Below, piece after piece: positions 2,380 to 10,491 of a DNA stretch of 16,612 nucleotides. A program made the position numbers and the translations under genes. The notes beneath the pieces are model-generated. The model ran no database searches. It had not been told where the DNA came from and saw nothing but the letters and a program-made list of their open reading frames with translations. The DNA is from a virus (lineage: Duplodnaviria; Heunggongvirae; Uroviricota; Caudoviricetes), in the IMG/VR virus record IMGVR_UViG_2778261179_000013, positions 1-16,612 of that record. One strand, written 5' to 3'. How positions within the stretch are numbered: the first letter of the stretch is position 1; each line of letters begins with the position of its first letter.

Positions 2380-2678
2380 AAAAGATAAATAAAATGACCG
2401 AATTACCGAAATGGTTTTCATTGGACAATTACAATTCTATCAATGGGCTGAGTGATCTTGATTTAATTAATCAGTTAGCTATGAGAATGGAAGTTGCTAA
2501 TGATGATTTTGAATGGCTTGATACCTATCCCGGAGCAAGAAATGAGTTCGCTTCATTTATGGAAGAAAGATTTAGTAACCCAATTCGGCCACTGAGCGGA
2601 AAATTATTTGCAGAAAAAATAAAAAGAAAAAATATTCTGAATGGCAAATGGATTCCGTCGGAGGTGTTGAGCCTTTAA
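2376..2678 (+). CDS. Hypothetical protein (AT-rich cargo ORF)
   Basis: 100-aa ORF whose ATG overlaps the int stop (ATGA at 2376-2379). Markedly AT-rich compared with the flanking genes. No motif recognised. Confidence 0.4.
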   Translation: MKKINKMTELPKWFSLDNYNSINGLSDLDLINQLAMRMEVANDDFEWLDTYPGARNEFASFMEERFSNPIRPLSGKLFAEKIKRKNILNGKWIPSEVLSL

Positions 2679-3163
2679 GATTAATTGATGTGATGCAGTT
2701 GTCTAAGAAAGCCGCTCATTATATTGATGAAAATAAAATTAATCGCTCATTGCGTGGACAAAAAAGGTCTGTAAGTAAGACCATAAGCGATAATGATCAA
2801 ATGCATATTACTTTAGATTTGTCTTGGCCTGATGAAATTTTATTAAGCGATTTGGCTGCATTGTTGCCAATATGGCGAATGGATCTTGAAAGGAAAAGTG
2901 AAAATAGTTGTAAGTTAAGTAATAGCTGGAGTGTAATCAAAAAGAAAATATTCGATTGCAAGATATTGCCAATGTTAGACCTTATGGAGTGGGCTAAAAT
3001 TAACAATGCAACAATCACTAACAGAGTTTTATCTTTAGCCCTGTTTCCTAATGCAGAGTATGACGCCATTGGTATCGCTCAAACGATCAAACCGTTCATT
3101 AGAAATTTTTCCGCAGATTTTTCTATAGAAATATTAAAGCGCAAAGCTATGGATTCATTTTAA
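2648..3163 (+). CDS. Hypothetical protein (AT-rich cargo ORF); start uncertain (alternative ATG at 2693)
   Basis: 171-aa ORF in a different frame, overlapping the previous ORF by 31 nt just after an A-rich run (2606-2632). Either a separate gene or the distal half of a frameshifted gene. No motif recognised. Confidence 0.45.
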   Translation: MDSVGGVEPLRLIDVMQLSKKAAHYIDENKINRSLRGQKRSVSKTISDNDQMHITLDLSWPDEILLSDLAALLPIWRMDLERKSENSCKLSNSWSVIKKKIFDCKILPMLDLMEWAKINNATITNRVLSLALFPNAEYDAIGIAQTIKPFIRNFSADFSIEILKRKAMDSF

Positions 3164-3571: not shown

Positions 3572-4378
3572 ATGGAAAAAATAACTGCCTTGGCTGGCAG
3601 CGGCCAAACTCACCCCGAAACCAGCCAGAAAGATATTTCCAGCGATAATTTTGCTGCCCGGATCCCTGTAACCATGAGCACTATTGGTGGGAAAGAAACT
3701 CAGTCTGTAAGTGGTCGTAAGCTGCATACGTTTCTAGCTGTAGGGCGAGACTTTACCACCTGGATGAAAGCACGCATCAAACAGTATGGGTTTGTTAAAG
3801 GGGTTGATTATGTAATTGTTGAAGATTTGAGCACCCCAAAACGGGGGAGCGCAAAATCTCGCCAACAAGTCGAGCACGATTACATTGTCAGCCTGAATAT
3901 GGCTAAAGAGCTTTCTATGGTTGAGCGCAACGCGCAAGGCAAGATGGCCCGCCAGTATTTCATCGACTGTGAAGAACGTCTGCGCCGCGTAGCACCAGAG
4001 GAACATGAGGCGGCGTTGTTGGGCTGGCGTAAAAATCGTGTAGCTGCCTGCGAAGATCATAAGAGTATGGCCGATGCAATGAAGGGCTATATCGAGCGCA
4101 CCGGCGACAGGCAGCACGGCTTTGCCTACAGCAATGAATGCTCGTTCCTGAATAGCCTTGTGCTGGGTATGCACCCGCGAGTGTGGGCGAAACAGAAAGA
4201 AATTCCAGTTAAGCTGGTGCGTGACCATATGAACGCCGATCAGCTGGCGCTGCTGGCTTATCTGGAAAGCCGTGATTGTGCTCTGCTGGATCTTGATACC
4301 CGTACGGCAACCCGTAAGGCGAAACTCACCGAACTGGCACAACGCTGGCTGGTTAAGCGTGTTGGAGGTGCTGAGTGA
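3572..4378 (+). CDS. Phage antirepressor-like protein (AntA-type N-terminal domain)
   Basis: 268 aa. SGRKLHTFLAVGRDFTTWMKARIKQYGFVKGVDYVIV resembles the AntA/AntB antirepressor N-terminal motif (sARdLH.fL ... F..W ... ygF.eg.Dy). The C-terminal half is unassigned. Confidence 0.55.
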   Translation: MEKITALAGSGQTHPETSQKDISSDNFAARIPVTMSTIGGKETQSVSGRKLHTFLAVGRDFTTWMKARIKQYGFVKGVDYVIVEDLSTPKRGSAKSRQQVEHDYIVSLNMAKELSMVERNAQGKMARQYFIDCEERLRRVAPEEHEAALLGWRKNRVAACEDHKSMADAMKGYIERTGDRQHGFAYSNECSFLNSLVLGMHPRVWAKQKEIPVKLVRDHMNADQLALLAYLESRDCALLDLDTRTATRKAKLTELAQRWLVKRVGGAE

Positions 4379-4708
4379 TTTTGCATAACTCAATCAGGGT
4401 TGCGCAGAATTTGAGCCGACGAAATTCGCACGCGCAAATCAAGCTCGGTGATATGCCGAGTTTGAACAACCGCGTACTTTTAACGTACGGACATAGCAAC
4501 CCATTGAATCATCTTAATTATCGCGAAATGCGAGAATTGGCGAGCAACGAACACGAACAGTATTCGGGTTCGCCTGAACATCAACACTGCTTAGGTTCAG
4601 AGGTTCCGACGAATAACGTAGAGAGCTGCAATGGCAGCGCATTTTTGCTCTACGAGGGAAATCAACAACGTACAGTTTTGTACCGTAATCCAGATTTGGC
4701 TTACGAGA

Positions 4709-4768
4709 GGGTAGTACCTCAAAGTCACGAGGTTAACAGGGTAGTAACTCATAGTTACCAGGTTAACC
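4709..4768. repeat. Tandem direct repeat, 2 x 30 bp (25/30 identical), each unit containing GTTAAC
   Basis: gggtagtacctcaaagtcacgaggttaaca (4709-4738) and gggtagtaactcatagttaccaggttaacc (4739-4768). The units carry different internal stems (ACCTC/GAGGT in unit 1, GTAACT/AGTTAC in unit 2). Confidence 0.8.
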
Positions 4769-4877
4769 GCGTCGCTAAAAGATACGCGGAAAGCAAGACC
4801 TCTTTAAGAGGGGCAGTTCAGTGCGTGGAGACCTACGAAATTTTCGTAGGTCACAGCATTACCGAGAGTAACCCTGT

Positions 4878-5063
4878 TCAGCTTTCAGATTCCGATCTGG
4901 CTTTCTTGCGTTGGCGGCGTTTGATCTCGCATTGCATGGCTGTAACGATAAATTGGGCAGTGCTTTCGCCTTGCTCTTTAACTTGTTCCATTGCCTCGAC
5001 AACTTCATGCGGGGCACGAGTTTGCAATTTTTGTGATTTTTCGTTCTTTGTTCCCGTCGCCAT
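4878..5063 (-). CDS. Ribbon-helix-helix (Arc/CopG/MetJ-like) transcriptional regulator, probable island repressor
   Basis: 61 aa from the ATG at 5061-5063 (minus), preceded by AGGAGA with a 7-nt spacer. QKLQTRAP-HEVVEAMEQVKEQ-GES-TAQFIVTAMQCEI fits the RHH beta-strand / helix A / G-x-S turn / helix B pattern. The supplied ORF track starts it at a TTG at 5084. Confidence 0.65.
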   Translation of the reverse strand: MATGTKNEKSQKLQTRAPHEVVEAMEQVKEQGESTAQFIVTAMQCEIKRRQRKKARSESES

Positions 5064-5081
5064 TACTAAGTCTCCTGATAT

Positions 5082-5190
5082 CAAGTGGAGTACAGAATAC
5101 CAGAAAAATAATGAAATAAAACACTTGAAGTGGATTCCACTTTGTATTTATAGTGGAGTCCACCTTGAAGGGGTTCACCTTCAAGATATA
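5082..5190. promoter_or_regulatory. Divergent promoter/operator region with interleaved inverted repeats (half-sites AAGTGGA / TCCACTT and CACTT / AAGTG)
   Basis: cacttgaagtg (5122-5132) and aagtgga-t-tccactt (5128-5142) are overlapping palindromes; agtggagtccac (5152-5163) and ccttgaagg plus caccttcaag (5161-5185) follow. The region lies between the RHH gene and the rightward operon. Confidence 0.55.
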
Positions 5191-5261
5191 GCGAAGCCCG
5201 GCAGTGCGCGAACACTAACCGGGCCTCTGACCACCAAGATAGTTAACGTATCGAGGCAGCT

Positions 5262-5450
5262 ATGAAAGATTATATCACACACCCGCAAGGGCGGAAGTCC
5301 TACACCTGGCGTTTTCTGGCGCTGAGCGCCATCGGTCGCAACGTCATTCACATCAAAGCTACCACCGAACGCGAAGCCCGTGAGCAATCACCGGCTGGCT
5401 GCGTGATGGTATTCGCTGGCCGTCTGCCTGTGGAGGTGCGCCATGCGTGA
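5262..5450 (+). CDS. Hypothetical small protein (first gene of the rightward replication operon)
   Basis: 62-aa ORF with GAGG 5 nt upstream of the ATG; overlaps the next ORF. Confidence 0.5.
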   Translation: MKDYITHPQGRKSYTWRFLALSAIGRNVIHIKATTEREAREQSPAGCVMVFAGRLPVEVRHA

Positions 5451-5637: not shown

Positions 5638-5852
5638 GACAGGTTCCTTTTGAAGTCCTGATGCACGCTGAAAATGCCCTTTCTGAAAGCGAAGGAGCCT
5701 ATGAGGTTCTCAGCATGTGGCTAGACAGTATTCCTGAAGGCGAGGAGTTCCACGGTGAAGCGTGCAAGGTAAGCGCAATCATGTCGCTGCTGCATAAATC
5801 TATCGGCGAGCTGGTGAAAGCGCGGGAGGCTTACAGTGAAAAACGCGCCTAA
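5634..5852 (+). CDS. Hypothetical small acidic protein
   Basis: 72-aa ORF with GGAGA upstream; overlaps the start of the replication gene. Confidence 0.5.
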   Translation: MRQVPFEVLMHAENALSESEGAYEVLSMWLDSIPEGEEFHGEACKVSAIMSLLHKSIGELVKAREAYSEKRA

Positions 5853-7605
5853 CGTGAAAACCCTCCCACGCGACAAAATGGAGGAGGCCATCATCTTTGC
5901 CGGAACAGGAGCATGGAAAGCAGCTCAGGATTACCAGAAAGGTAAAGATGAGCATGGCGATGAGGTGCCGCCGGTTGTTCTGGATCATACCCAGCTGGCG
6001 GAATTACCCCACCTGCGCATTGTTGATAAAGGACGCCGATTTGCCCGTGTCTGTCAGGCCGGACTTATCGAACAAAACCAAATCAGTATGATTGCCAATA
6101 AGTTGTGTGAGGCTGGCGTTACCAATGCTGAGTTTATCAACGAAAAAGGTGAGAAAGAGGACTGGACGCCATTAATGAAGCGTCTGGAAGACGAGCCCCT
6201 AATGGTGACTACGAGGGGTAGCGCTACGCCAGCGCTTAACCAGATGGGAGCCAGCCAGCGCGGGGAAGTTCTGCTTGCTCATTACGATGGCAATCTGGCG
6301 ATCCATGCTGATTCCGACACGGTTCATCATTACAACGGCGTGGTGTGGGTTCCGCTTTCGGATAAAGAGCTGCAGCGAGAAATGGCGCAAATTTTTATTG
6401 ATGCCGAAGTCGCCTATTCGCAGAACGCGATTAAATCCGCTGTCGATACAATGAAGCTGGGTCTGCCAGTGATGGGTAACACAGCCCGAAATCTTATTGG
6501 TTTCAGCAACGGGGTTTTTGATACCCGGTTAGGGCAATTTCGACCACATGATAAAAAGGACTGGCTTATCGTTGCGAGCGAATTGCCATTCAGCGAACCA
6601 GCAGAAGGAGAGACTCTGGCAACCCATGCGCCGAACTTCTGGAAATGGCTCCGCCGCTCTGTGGCGGATAATGACAGAAAATCAGACCGCGTACTGTCTG
6701 CTCTGTTCATGGTGCTGGCGAACCGGTACGACTGGCAGCTGTTTCTTGAGGTAACGGGGCCGGGCGGAAGTGGTAAAAGTGTTATGGCTGAGATCTGCAC
6801 GATGCTGGCCGGCAAAGCCAATACGGTATCGGCAAGCATGGCGGCGCTGGAGAACCCAAGGGAAAGGGCGCTGGTGGTTGGCTATTCGCTGATTATCATG
6901 CCGGATATGACCCGGTACGCTGGCGACGGCGCAGGGATTAAAGCTATCACTGGCGGGGATAAGGTAGCTATCGACCCTAAACACAAAGCGCCGTATTCAA
7001 CGCGTATTCCGGCAGTGGTGCTGGCCGTCAATAACAATGCCATGTCATTCAGCGACCGAAGCGGTGGTATTTCGCGTCGTCGGGTTATTTTTAACTTCTC
7101 AGAGGTGGTACCGGAAAACGAACGTGATCCTATGCTTGCCGAGAAGATTGAAGGTGAGCTGGCCGTTATCATTCGCCACCTGCTTACTCGCTTTTCCAGA
7201 CAGGACGAGGCCAAACAGCTTTTGCATGAGCAGCAGAAATCAGAAGAGGCGCTGGCCATCAAACGTGAAGGGGATTCACTGGTGGACTTTTGCGGCTACC
7301 TGATGGCTTCGGTCGTATGTGATGGCATGTTTATCGGGAACGCCGAGATCGTACCGTTCAGCCCGCGCCGTTATCTGTATCACGCTTATCTGGCTTATAT
7401 GCGGGCTAACGGCCTGAGCAAGCCGGTGTCGCTGATGAGGTTCGGCACGGATATGCCAGGCGCAATGGCTGAATATGGCAAGGAGTACCAGAAGCGCAAA
7501 ACAAAACATGGCATAAGATCAAACGTCACACTTCACGACGATTCAGAAGACTGGATGCCTATGTGGAATGATACTTCTCACAATACCGGAGAAAATCAAA
7601 AGTAA
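5836..7605 (+). CDS. Replication initiator / SF3 helicase of the P4 alpha (D5-like) family (PICI pri-rep-like)
   Basis: 589 aa. Walker A VTGPGGSGKS, a Walker B-like LIIMPDMT region, and a D5_N-like segment (IGFSNGVFDTRLGQFRPHDKKDW). GTG start at 5836 is preceded by GGGAGG with a 7-nt spacer. No EGYATA-type primase motif seen in the N-terminal ~300 aa. Confidence 0.85.
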   Translation: MKNAPNVKTLPRDKMEEAIIFAGTGAWKAAQDYQKGKDEHGDEVPPVVLDHTQLAELPHLRIVDKGRRFARVCQAGLIEQNQISMIANKLCEAGVTNAEFINEKGEKEDWTPLMKRLEDEPLMVTTRGSATPALNQMGASQRGEVLLAHYDGNLAIHADSDTVHHYNGVVWVPLSDKELQREMAQIFIDAEVAYSQNAIKSAVDTMKLGLPVMGNTARNLIGFSNGVFDTRLGQFRPHDKKDWLIVASELPFSEPAEGETLATHAPNFWKWLRRSVADNDRKSDRVLSALFMVLANRYDWQLFLEVTGPGGSGKSVMAEICTMLAGKANTVSASMAALENPRERALVVGYSLIIMPDMTRYAGDGAGIKAITGGDKVAIDPKHKAPYSTRIPAVVLAVNNNAMSFSDRSGGISRRRVIFNFSEVVPENERDPMLAEKIEGELAVIIRHLLTRFSRQDEAKQLLHEQQKSEEALAIKREGDSLVDFCGYLMASVVCDGMFIGNAEIVPFSPRRYLYHAYLAYMRANGLSKPVSLMRFGTDMPGAMAEYGKEYQKRKTKHGIRSNVTLHDDSEDWMPMWNDTSHNTGENQK

Positions 7606-7860
7606 TGGGAAAAGTGTTCACCACTATTCACTGTGGATAAAATCGTTTATATAACAGATATTTAAGGGGTGAACACTTTTTATTGAAGTGTTCACCAAGT
7701 ATTCACCTGTTCACCTTTAAAGGGCTTTTCTTTTAAAAGGTGAAGGGTTAGGGTGAACACTAGTGAATACTTAAAATTATAGTCTTCACCCTGTAACCAT
7801 ATGAATTTGAATGGAAAAAATGCAAAGGTGAACAGGTGAACACTTAAACGCATATTTTTT
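7606..7860. repeat. Iteron array and AT-rich tract; putative origin of replication (P4 ori/crr-like)
   Basis: At least 10 copies of GGTGAACA(CTT) or its reverse complement (AAG)TGTTCACC, e.g. 7612-7622, 7668-7678, 7686-7696, 7709-7716, 7751-7760, 7826-7833, 7834-7844, plus variants (tattcacc, gtgaatac, cttcacc), followed by T-rich runs at 7852-7866. Placement immediately 3' of the replication gene is typical for these satellites. Confidence 0.75.
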
Positions 7861-7878
7861 ATTTTTACGAGGCTGCAT

Positions 7879-8223
7879 ATGGAAATTTTAGGCAACCATA
7901 ACGACAAGTTTCACGGCATCAAATTTCTGCATAGTGCAATTGAAGAAATGAATGAGAAAGCTGAAGTAACTCTGACCGACTATCTGGCTCTTAGGGCTTT
8001 TGTTCTGGCTGAGCGAAGAGAAACTCAGGACTACATTGATGCAATGGATGAAACGTATGCTGATTTGCCCGATGATCTGCGTTCTTACATTGAGCTTCTT
8101 AATGACGTTGCCGCACAGCTATCAAATCCATCACGCTCAAATGGGAATTTAAAATCAATTATTTACGATGCGAGAATATCAAGCGGAAACGCCATGTCTC
8201 ACTGGTTCAGTGTTGATAGATAG
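7879..8223 (+). CDS. Hypothetical protein (AT-rich cargo, gene 1 of a two-gene cassette)
   Basis: 114-aa ORF with ACGAGG 6 nt upstream of the ATG. Acidic and predicted helical; no motif recognised. Compositionally distinct from the flanking replication and head genes. Confidence 0.55.
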   Translation: MEILGNHNDKFHGIKFLHSAIEEMNEKAEVTLTDYLALRAFVLAERRETQDYIDAMDETYADLPDDLRSYIELLNDVAAQLSNPSRSNGNLKSIIYDARISSGNAMSHWFSVDR

Positions 8224-8246: not shown

Positions 8247-9092
8247 ATGCGTACTAATGATGATTTACAGATAATCCGAAAGCATCTGGATGGTGAATTT
8301 GAACAGCGCCTGTTAGACGCTGCGATCAATAACCTTTTGGATGAAAATAATCAGCTTCGGTTCAGCAATTATGCCTATGCACTTAGAGAGCTATTCTTAC
8401 ACGTTCTAAAACGCATGGCACCTGATGAAAATGTTCAACTATGCGAGTGGTTTCCTGGTTTGAATGAAAGAGAGCAGGTTGCAAGAAAAGACTCTTACAA
8501 ATATATCATTCATGGTGGGTTAAGTGATGAATATGTCAGGGATGTACTTGATGTAAATATTGCCGGAGTAATTCCGGGATTGCGTGATGCGTTCTACTCA
8601 TTAAATAAATTTACTCACATAAGCGAAAAGATTTTTCCAATTAATGATGACGATGGCCTAAAAATGGTGGGAGAGGTTGAAGGTTGCATCGGAGCTCTTT
8701 TCACCAAGCTTGATGAGTGTCATAAGGAGATAATTAATAAGCTTTATGAAGCTGTGAGTGAGGCCGCGATACATAGTTCGATAACTGAAACTGTAACATC
8801 AATTGATATTTTATCGACACACAGCTCGGTTGATGAAGTGTATGTTGATGATGTGAAAATAGTAGAAATAAATGACTCTGAAGTAATTTTCTCTGTTAGT
8901 GGCTCTGTAGGTGTCGGGTTGCAATGGGGATCTAATTCCGATTTGCGAAATGACATAGGTGCTGTAGGTAGAGAAACATTCCCATTTACCTGCGAGGTGA
9001 GAAGTCCAGTGTATGCCCCTGAACGTTTAGAGTGTGATGAAGGGGCATTCCATGCAGATACTTCAAGTTGGTGGGAAGGATATTACGACTAA
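8247..9092 (+). CDS. Hypothetical protein (AT-rich cargo, gene 2 of a two-gene cassette)
   Basis: 281-aa ORF with AAGAAGGGA upstream of the ATG. Helical N-terminal region containing an R-x4-H motif (RELFLH) and a beta-rich C-terminal region. Followed by an intrinsic terminator. Confidence 0.6.
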   Translation: MRTNDDLQIIRKHLDGEFEQRLLDAAINNLLDENNQLRFSNYAYALRELFLHVLKRMAPDENVQLCEWFPGLNEREQVARKDSYKYIIHGGLSDEYVRDVLDVNIAGVIPGLRDAFYSLNKFTHISEKIFPINDDDGLKMVGEVEGCIGALFTKLDECHKEIINKLYEAVSEAAIHSSITETVTSIDILSTHSSVDEVYVDDVKIVEINDSEVIFSVSGSVGVGLQWGSNSDLRNDIGAVGRETFPFTCEVRSPVYAPERLECDEGAFHADTSSWWEGYYD

Positions 9093-9160: not shown

Positions 9161-9324
9161 ATTTTCATGTATATGTTGAGAAGTGGCACTCAGACGTGAG
9201 CCGCCACTGGCCGTTAAATCAAGCTGTAGCGAGTACAGCCTGTGGGATGCAGAAAAAGATTTAACGGCCTCCCCTCCAAGCGCTGGTTTCACGTCTCTAC
9301 GTTAATTGATACGGAAACCACTCC

Positions 9325-10491
9325 ATGAAGAAACTACTCGAATTACGCCAGCAGAAAGCCACACTCAAAACCCAGATGCGTTCCATGCTGGACAAAGCCG
9401 ACACCGAAAAGCGCAGCCTGAACGAAGAAGAGGGCAAAAAGTTCGATGAACTCCGCGCCCAGGCTGATGCGCTTGAAGTTGAAATTACCCGCCTCGAAGC
9501 CGTCGCCGACGATCAGCGCAATCTGCCTGGTACTTCCGTTGAAGGTGAGCTAGTAAGCAACGACGAGCTGCGTCACTACATTATGACCGGTGATACCCGT
9601 TCTCTCTCCACGCTGGTGCAGGCTGACGGCGGTTATACCGTTATTCCTGAACTGGACAAAGAGATCATGCGTCAGTTGCAGGATGATAGCGTGATGCGCT
9701 CCATCGCAACGGTAAAGACCACCAAAACCAACGAATACCAGAAACTGGTATCTGTGGGCGGCACTACCGTTAAGCGCGGTACCGAAGGCGAAGCGCGTAC
9801 CGAAACCAGCACGCCGAAGATGGAGCGTGTTGATATCAAACTCAACCCGATCTACGCCTATCCGAAAACCACTCAGGAAATTCTCGACTTCTCTGAGGTG
9901 GATATTCTGGGCTGGCTGTCTTCTGAAATTGCCGACACCTTCACCGCTACCGAAGAGAGCGACTTTGTGAACGGCGACGGTGATAAAAAATCCAAAGGGT
10001 TCCTGTCTTACCCTCGCGCGGCCACAGCCGATAAAACCCGCCCGTTCGGTACGCTGGAGAAGATGGAAGCTGCTGACGTTTCCTCTGATGGCCTGATCGA
10101 CCTGCTGTATAAGCTGAAAGCCAAATACCGCAAAAACGCCGTATGGGTGATGAACTCCAATACCGCGGCCAAACTGCAAAAGCTGAAAAACGGCAACGGG
10201 GATTACATCTGGCGAGATCGTCTGGTTGCCGGTTCTCCCGATACGCTGCTGGGCCGTCCGGTTCAATATCTCGAAACCATGCCAGATGCGGAAGCAGGTG
10301 AAGCGTTCCTTGCTGTGGGCGACTTCAAACGCGGCTATTTCATCGTGGATCACACCACTGGTGTGCGTACCCGTCCTGACAACATCACCGAACCGGGTTT
10401 CTACAAGGTACATACCGATAAATACCTGGGCGGCGGCGTGGTGGACTCCAACGCCATCAAGGTGCTTGAGCTTTCCGGCTCCGGTTCCTGA
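9325..10491 (+). CDS. Major capsid protein, HK97 family (with N-terminal delta/scaffold-like coiled coil)
   Basis: 388 aa. N-terminal coiled-coil region (LELRQQKATLKTQMRSMLDKADTEKRSLNEEEGKKFDELRAQADALEVEITRLEA) and HK97-MCP-like core blocks (GGYTVIPE ... AVWVMNSNTAAKLQKLKNGNGDYIW ... LLGRPV ... GDFKRGYFIVDH). Confidence 0.9.
   Translation: MKKLLELRQQKATLKTQMRSMLDKADTEKRSLNEEEGKKFDELRAQADALEVEITRLEAVADDQRNLPGTSVEGELVSNDELRHYIMTGDTRSLSTLVQADGGYTVIPELDKEIMRQLQDDSVMRSIATVKTTKTNEYQKLVSVGGTTVKRGTEGEARTETSTPKMERVDIKLNPIYAYPKTTQEILDFSEVDILGWLSSEIADTFTATEESDFVNGDGDKKSKGFLSYPRAATADKTRPFGTLEKMEAADVSSDGLIDLLYKLKAKYRKNAVWVMNSNTAAKLQKLKNGNGDYIWRDRLVAGSPDTLLGRPVQYLETMPDAEAGEAFLAVGDFKRGYFIVDHTTGVRTRPDNITEPGFYKVHTDKYLGGGVVDSNAIKVLELSGSGS

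Follow-up and report, generated by a model that had tools for sequence, protein, structure and literature searches.

A candidate replication origin made of two inverted P4-ori-like iteron modules in a capsid-forming PICI of Escherichia coli

The initiator alpha of P4 is said, from work by Ziegelin et al. in 1993, to bind the P4 type 1 octamers. The GenBank record of P4 (NC_001609) annotates 16 octamers as 'ori type 1 repeat': ori (9310-9413) has six, and crr (4291-4590) contains two 120-bp repeats with five octamers each. The crr is directly 3' of the alpha gene, about 4.7 kb away from ori, and is a required cis element annotated apart from the rep_origin feature. The winged-helix domain at the C-terminus of alpha is described as the part that binds the origin repeats (PMC4234260; PMC2777425); helix 2 of this domain holds the two conserved tyrosines, and the DNA contacts are made by helix 3 and the wing (PMC2777425).

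In PICIs, the homology between Pri-Rep and P4 alpha and the location of ori 3' of rep are already published, and ori is defined as two sets of iterons flanking AT-rich DNA, the sites of one side being oriented opposite to those of the other (PMC6092414, Fig. 2 legend). In the case of EcCICFT073, rep together with its 3' region supports plasmid replication, and the deletion of either abolishes replication (Fillol-Salom et al. 2018, PMC6092414). The same 2018 paper on Gram-negative PICIs describes the relation of Pri-Rep to alpha as 'distant' and the organisation of the origin as unique to PICIs (PMC6092414). The Reps of SaPIs are helicases that load themselves, their winged-helix domain binding iterons located on either side of an AT-rich region (PMC9371898).

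The stretch of DNA analysed here (hereafter the window, 16,612 bases) is 99.886% identical to a locus of E. coli ABW_S38 located between yhdJ and fis. Its genes are, in order, those encoding an integrase, a DUF6387 protein, an HTH regulator, AntA/B, an Icd-like protein, two small ORFs and a 589-aa Rep, followed by two accessory genes and by the genes for the major capsid protein, prohead protease, portal, head closure, connector, HNH, TerS and TerL. Neither Pfam searches nor the RefSeq annotation of the ABW_S38 locus reveal any tail gene in the window. Such a gene make-up is that of the capsid-forming PICIs (PMC10085698; bioRxiv 10.1101/2022.09.08.507074) and, judged by its gene content, the island is a cf-PICI; the description of the element outside its replicon as PICI-like, made in an earlier note on this DNA, therefore holds. 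A close relative was deposited as a 16.5-kb 'phage', vB_KppS-Ant.

Rep is encoded at 5836-7605 (+ strand) and named 'DNA primase family protein' in RefSeq. It combines an SF3 helicase, recognised by the Pfam matches D5_N, DUF5906 and Pox_D5 that are the signature of this superfamily, with a C-terminal winged-helix origin-binding domain. Residues 134-581 share 51% identity (229/449) with residues 327-775 of P4 alpha (BLASTP, E 4e-163), and aa 479-575 (codons 7270-7560, + strand) match chain residues 2-99 of PDB 1KA8, the solved origin-binding domain of P4 alpha (phmmer, E 5.3e-26). The helicase core also has a weak similarity to the PriRep of SaPI5 (7OLA, E 4e-9). The N-terminal part differs: residues 1-133 (5836-6234) are unrelated to alpha, whose aa 1-326 consist of Zn_Ribbon_Prim and Toprim domains. 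Residues 1-140 have no match in Pfam, NCBIfam or the PDB sequences, the only match of the N-terminus being phrog_2850, a PHROG of unknown function. Rep is thus regarded as a helicase/initiator without recognisable primase domain. In several related loci (L015-L017, L019, L023 and L025-L028), the match to the Rep of the window starts only near residue 130, and the N-terminal module seems to be exchangeable.

An array of octamers immediately follows this gene. The seven exact copies of GGTGAACA/TGTTCACC (the two orientations of the word) found in the whole window are all located within 7615-7842, against a mean of 0.48 and a maximum of 3 in dinucleotide shuffles of the window (0 of 200 shuffles reach 7). 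The array also includes two copies with one mismatch (7700-7707, TATTCACC; 7783-7790, TCTTCACC); the nine remaining one-mismatch octamers are isolated over the window and do not exceed the chance level (11.5 expected for the whole window). When octamer-like sites are counted in 250-bp bins, the bin of the array is the only enriched one. Three further copies carry two mismatches, at 7625-7632 (TATTCACT), 7739-7746 (GGTGAAGG) and 7762-7769 (AGTGAATA), and the alignment of the arrays indicates that close relatives have better copies of the octamer in these three slots. The seven exact, two one-mismatch and three two-mismatch copies therefore amount to 12 iteron slots in 228 bp. The first of them, at 7615, is located 10 bp past the stop codon (7605) of the helicase ORF, and the GC content drops from 0.52-0.57 within rep to 0.34 within the array. 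The claims of the earlier note that the octamers form a cluster in both orientations and that this cluster lies directly downstream of the replication helicase gene are thus both confirmed. No IHF consensus is present within the array.

The conservation of the array was estimated from an alignment of 15 arrays of the TGTTCACC class originating from Escherichia, Klebsiella, Citrobacter, Raoultella, Pluralibacter, Pectobacterium, Kluyvera and Pantoea. The identity to the window is 90% in the iteron columns and 64% in the other columns (Mann-Whitney, p = 2e-13). The region is AT-rich and intergenic, which might evoke a cluster due to chance or low complexity, or else a site of packaging (cos/pac). 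Both explanations are practically negligible, as the shuffled sequences never reach the observed count and the sites are conserved across genera. Furthermore, in the deposited record of the related packaged genome vB_KppS-Ant, the ends lie a short way upstream of terS, about 4.6 kb past the array on the circular map; this suggests a packaging site at terS and not at the array.

Arrays homologous to that of the window and adjoining a gene for a 'DNA primase family protein' were found in 668 of 5426 complete E. coli genomes. An array is also located directly 3' of rep in 30 related loci and in EcCICFT073; in one other locus, L032, no array was seen downstream of the rep homologue. In E. coli, the places homologous to the array number 798 in these 668 genomes, with up to six per genome, so that satellites with the same or a similar class of iterons can reside together in a cell while they are integrated. 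A more distant case is the Pasteurella satellite L035 (Pasteurella phage Pmp7, OR544138), whose Rep is 35% identical to that of the window: a short GTGAA(T/C/G)A array lies at 2190-2290, between rep and the integrase gene, and resembles only the right-hand module of the array (...GTGAATACTTAAAATAAGTCTTCAC...GAGGTGAACACT).

The 12 iterons are distributed into two modules of six. The left module (7615-7715, + strand) includes the sites 7615-7622, 7625-7632, 7668-7675 (inverted), 7689-7696, 7700-7707 and 7708-7715, with the orientations > > < > > > and the offsets 0,10,53,74,85,93 (positions at which the octamers start along the reading direction). The right module (7739-7842, - strand) is an inverted copy of the left one and includes the sites 7739-7746, 7752-7759, 7762-7769, 7783-7790 (opposite orientation), 7827-7834 and 7835-7842. 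Read on the - strand, it displays the same pattern > > < > > >, with the offsets 0,8,52,73,83,96, and, once reverse-complemented, it shares 59% identity with the left module. The earlier note had described two halves of mostly opposite orientations, and indeed the + strand shows TGTTCACC at five of the six sites in 7615-7715 and GGTGAACA at five of the six in 7739-7842.

Three AT-rich segments separate these sites: a 35-bp spacer in the left module (7633-7667, 74% A+T), a central 23-bp segment (7716-7738, 78% A+T), which is the dyad centre between the inverted modules, and a spacer in the right module (7791-7826, 72% A+T). A nearest-neighbour stability scan places the least stable 25-mers of the array at 7640-7664, within the left spacer (this one being the least stable of all), and at 7760-7784; the AT-rich segments of the array are not the least stable DNA of the window. 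Any of the three segments may be the melting site. The left spacer also contains a perfect DnaA box (TTATCCACA, 7632-7640, - strand) that abuts the degenerate second iteron and is the only exact copy in the window. It is absent in the closest relatives, which have an intact second iteron followed by ...ATGTATAAAA, and may result from chance or from a recent gain.

When single-stranded, both strands of the array fold far better than shuffled sequences (-51.3 and -49.1 kcal/mol, z = -8.7 and -8.9). The functional element might therefore be a hairpin or cruciform of the inverted copies, acting as a signal for single-strand initiation or priming or as a stem-loop origin similar to that of pRN1. 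A stem-loop 3' of rep was proposed for the primase-helicase proteins of the pRN1 type (PMC4234260), and a signal for host priming would be sensible since Rep lacks a primase. However, a word that is present in both orientations gives such a fold automatically, tandem sites are numerous, five of the six sites of the P4 ori module share one orientation, and P4 alpha is described as binding the repeats via its winged-helix domain (PMC4234260). This explanation is thus extremely unlikely, but hairpins could form after melting as a secondary feature.

A T-rich block (CTTAAACGCATATTTTTTATTTTTAC, 7843-7868) is located just outside the last iteron, and its conservation across genera in the 15 arrays is nearly that of the iterons. 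It corresponds to one of the two T-rich flanks mentioned in the earlier note: the T-run of the right side (7853-7868) is present, but the left side of the array is the A-rich end of a coding sequence. The block possibly belongs to the origin or is a promoter of the next genes, and no strong sigma-70 match was found in it in the + direction. At its start it is similar to the P4 type 2 repeat CCACTTAAAG, from which it differs at two positions. The array, located between two blocks of genes of the same orientation, with this conserved block after its last iteron and no intrinsic terminator found after rep in the + direction by a scan, might be considered as being mainly a transcriptional operator or roadblock, through which Rep would control either its own synthesis or the read-through into the accessory and packaging genes. 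However, the promoter-like matches are weak and no more numerous than in shuffled sequence (3, against 1.5 +/- 1.2), and 12 sites arranged in inverted modules with AT-rich spacers, colinear with two origins from the literature, are far more than an operator needs. A main function of this kind is therefore highly unlikely; as a side function of the array it is possible, since a regulatory side-effect is compatible with a function as origin and does not replace it.

The earlier note had taken the octamer for the type I iteron of P4 and had proposed its comparison with P4 ori and crr. This comparison proves it right, as the word TGTTCACC of the window is identical to the 'ori type 1 repeat' of NC_001609. 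The repeats extracted from P4 are TGTTCACC and the variants TATTCACC, TCTTCACC and TGTTCACA, and the variants TATTCACC and TCTTCACC are shared with the array of the window. The sharing of this word and the homology of the adjoining protein with alpha (51% over alpha 327-775, match to 1KA8) likewise uphold the tie of the island replicon to P4 that had been suggested.

This kinship extends to the arrangement of the sites. Read in the direction of alpha, the six iterons of P4 ori have the orientations > > < > > > and the offsets 0,10,53,75,86,96. A MAFFT alignment of the three modules of about 120 bp (left, right and P4 ori) puts all the iterons in register with 59-61% identity: P4 ori (9300-9423, reverse-complemented) shares 60% identity with the left module and 61% with the right module once the latter is reverse-complemented too. 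The 35-bp AT-rich spacer located between iterons 2 and 3 and a motif TAA(A/G)GGGTGAACA are aligned as well. Since the modules are colinear, the array can be viewed as two inverted P4-ori-like modules arranged around a 23-bp AT-rich centre. A BLASTN search of the array against phage records did not retrieve P4, this kinship being visible only as octamers and spacing.

The location of the array directly 3' of the initiator gene is that of P4 crr, but the geometry of its iterons is that of P4 ori. Location alone would therefore be no proof that replication initiates at the array, and the most serious alternative is that the array is a cis enhancer of the crr type that binds Rep, with an initiation elsewhere, for example at a site inside rep comparable to the second P4 replicon, or outside of the window. 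In every crr repeat of P4, iterons 1 to 3 (0,9,52) fit the start of the module, and work cited in PMC6092414 describes two replicons in P4. However, the spacing of the crr repeats agrees with that of the module for these three sites only, whereas the full six-iteron geometry is that of P4 ori; counts of exact copies, of one-mismatch copies and of octamer-like sites per 250-bp bin did not reveal any second iteron cluster elsewhere in the 16.6-kb window; and rep of EcCICFT073 with its homologous 3' region was sufficient for plasmid replication (PMC6092414). Such an enhancer is consequently unlikely, and the assignment of the array to the crr type was rejected in favour of the ori module.

The two replicons also differ in several ways. 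P4 has an ori and a separate crr, whereas the window has one compact site made of two adjacent inverted modules. [quoted passage not shown] Three tandem 10-mers, the type 2 repeats CCACTTAAAG, lie beside P4 ori, whereas no such tandem repeats but only isolated matches with two mismatches were found in the window. P4 carries the capsid-hijack genes sid, psu and delta, as well as epsilon and the C4/CI immunity RNA. None of these hallmarks is present in the island, whose downstream genes are instead those for capsid, portal and terminase, and no Rfam family, C4/CI RNA included, reaches the threshold in the window. The label of P4 replicon was thus rejected, as the fused primase, separate crr, type 2 repeats and accessory genes of P4 are all lacking, and the array was therefore filed as the origin of a cf-PICI.

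Among PICIs, the closest comparison is provided by EcCICFT073. Ten sites with the orientations > > < > > > < < < < and the offsets 0,9,57,77,88,97,130,141,209,218 were found 3' of its pri-rep in E. coli CFT073; one of the deletion primers given in PMC6092414 matches the sequence analysed, which is thus the same locus. The two islands share an array located directly 3' of rep, inverted iteron sets around AT-rich DNA with nearly the same spacing, and the order int, HTH regulator, Icd-like protein and rep. Their Reps are 41% identical over their full length. They differ in the iteron word (TGTCTACC/TATCTACC in EcCICFT073, TGTTCACC in the window) and in the putative wing of Rep (ITRKVKGVTQTN versus QKRKTKHGIRSN). 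In addition, EcCICFT073 is a classical PICI that borrows the capsids of its helper, whereas the island of the window encodes its own capsid, portal and terminase. SaPIs (Ubeda 2007; PMC9371898) also have an ori directly 3' of rep, with 6-12 iterons split in opposite directions around an AT-rich region, and a specificity that comes from a C-terminal winged-helix domain carried by an SF3-type helicase; by contrast, their iterons are 5-6 nt long and of unrelated sequence, their proteins are distant and their hosts are Gram-positive.

The window therefore displays the features of a PICI origin, i.e. an array 3' of rep, opposed iteron sets flanking DNA with 78% A+T, and the gene set of an island. 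Taken as a whole, these data suggest, with a probability of roughly 85%, that 7606-7860 is the vegetative replication origin of the cf-PICI inserted between yhdJ and fis in E. coli and that it works by the binding of Rep to the iterons. Origin function was tested in EcCICFT073, and that of the array is inferred from its homology to this origin. A PICI origin 3' of rep with an alpha-homologous Rep is a known kind of element. However, the kinship of the array to the P4 origin appears closer than that described in PMC6092414, and its exact colinearity with the P4 ori module may be a modest novelty. It shows that one and the same six-iteron module makes up the P4 origin and the PICI origin. For a widespread family of satellites, the array would define both the origin and the code by which the initiator binds it.

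The binding and loading of Rep, the melting and the priming at the array can be pictured as follows, by analogy with the elements described above. After induction, Rep synthesised from the adjoining gene would bind the iterons through its C-terminal winged-helix domain, a short segment of which (aa 552-566) would read the variable middle of the octamer. Several Rep protomers would then assemble on each module and, the modules being inverted, helicase rings would be loaded facing opposite ways. The AT-rich DNA would melt and be unwound bidirectionally, as in the model of the self-loading Reps of SaPIs (PMC9371898). As Rep has no recognisable primase domain, priming would presumably be carried out by the host DnaG or by the N-terminal domain of Rep.

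The role proposed for this segment comes from the comparison of Reps and iterons across related loci. Arrays were found in 30 loci overall, over which the covariation holds, and 31 proteins were aligned; the octamer classes were drawn from 26 loci of species-representative genomes, and the iteron class of each locus is the commonest octamer downstream of its rep homologue. The octamer classes, each restricted to the region downstream of rep, are TGTTCACC; TGTCTACC; TCTCCACC; TGTCCGCC and TGTCCACC; and TATCTACC. The spacing is largely kept across classes, the offsets in L020, which belongs to the TCTCCACC class, being 0,10,53,74,85,93. Each class has its own sequence in one segment of 15-20 residues that follows a conserved ...MPGAMAEYGKEY. 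This segment is (Q/E)K(R/K)(K/R/H)TK(H/Q/N/L)G(I/L/M)(R/Q)(S/T)N in the TGTTCACC class, a pattern that includes P4, KRKQCTRGPDKGRTISN in the TGTCTACC class, IRKKSTKGNMRSN in the TCTCCACC class, KKAESKKKATRGRIQSN in the TGTCCGCC class and LTRTIKGRRQTN in the TATCTACC class. In the window, the covarying segment is QKRKTKHGIRSNVTL (aa 552-566, codons 7489-7533, + strand).

In Reps whose 73-residue domain core is 75-90% identical to the window, the segment is only 25-50% identical when the octamer differs. Conversely, the core of P4 alpha is only 49% identical to that of the window, but the segment is 60% identical and the octamer is the same. As the single-sequence AlphaFold models (pLDDT 44 for the C-terminal domain and 48 for the N-terminal 140 aa) are too poor to use, we infer from the alignment and from the general topology of winged-helix domains that aa 552-566 form the beta-hairpin wing that follows the recognition helix. 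These residues probably set the specificity for the origin. A natural swap is seen in L024 and L031, which come from two contigs of the MAG Enterobacterales SMAGNO137: their Reps are identical at 545 of 553 positions (99%) up to the last 60 aa, which share only 63% identity, and their arrays are of the TGTTCACC and TCTCCACC classes, respectively. A specificity cassette thus appears to have been exchanged recently. Such a covariation between wing and iterons, with a natural swap, may also be new at a modest level.

Since a large group of enterobacterial PICIs and cf-PICIs has the iteron word and the module geometry of P4 and a P4-like wing, P4 alpha and the Reps of these islands could fire, or compete for, each other's origins when both satellites are induced in the same cell. 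In this scenario, which is tentative and rather doubtful, the final ~45 residues of Rep would have been replaced repeatedly, each time together with the ~12 iterons (TGTTCACC, TGTCTACC, TCTCCACC, TGTCCGCC, TATCTACC); this would be a switch of specificity and would create replication 'incompatibility groups' among satellites residing together. If true, the joint switching of wing and iterons would offer an escape route from competition between P4 and PICIs, L024 and L031 being a recent example of it. The wing residues (aa 552-566) would constitute a short, testable list, usable for predicting which satellites cross-replicate and for building orthogonal rep-ori pairs.

Several other features of the window deserve mention. 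No convincing att direct repeats were found inside the window, and attR is probably located beyond its end. Two matches to the IHF consensus WATCAANNNNTTR, at 947-959 and 1038-1050, lie just upstream of the integrase gene and likely belong to the arm region of the attachment site. Two accessory ORFs are located between the array and the capsid gene. The first (7879-8223) encodes a 114-aa protein of phrog_7232, of unknown function. The second (8247-9092) encodes a 281-aa protein with the 'predicted pPIWI-associating nuclease' domains pP_pnuc_1 and pP_pnuc_2 (E 1e-31 to 1e-36); no Argonaute is encoded near 8247-9092, and this protein is possibly a defence cargo of the satellite. At position 2626, the window has a run of six A where ABW_S38 has seven, and the DUF6387 gene is split into the ORFs 2376-2678 and 2648-3163; a sequencing error, a pseudogene or a slippage site might each account for this difference. 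Finally, a GTG-start ORF (4375-5265, + strand, 296 aa) without any family match is unannotated in RefSeq, where a YlcI/YnfO gene is found on the opposite strand (4878-5063, -); at the equivalent place, vB_KppS-Ant encodes a 324-aa hypothetical protein.
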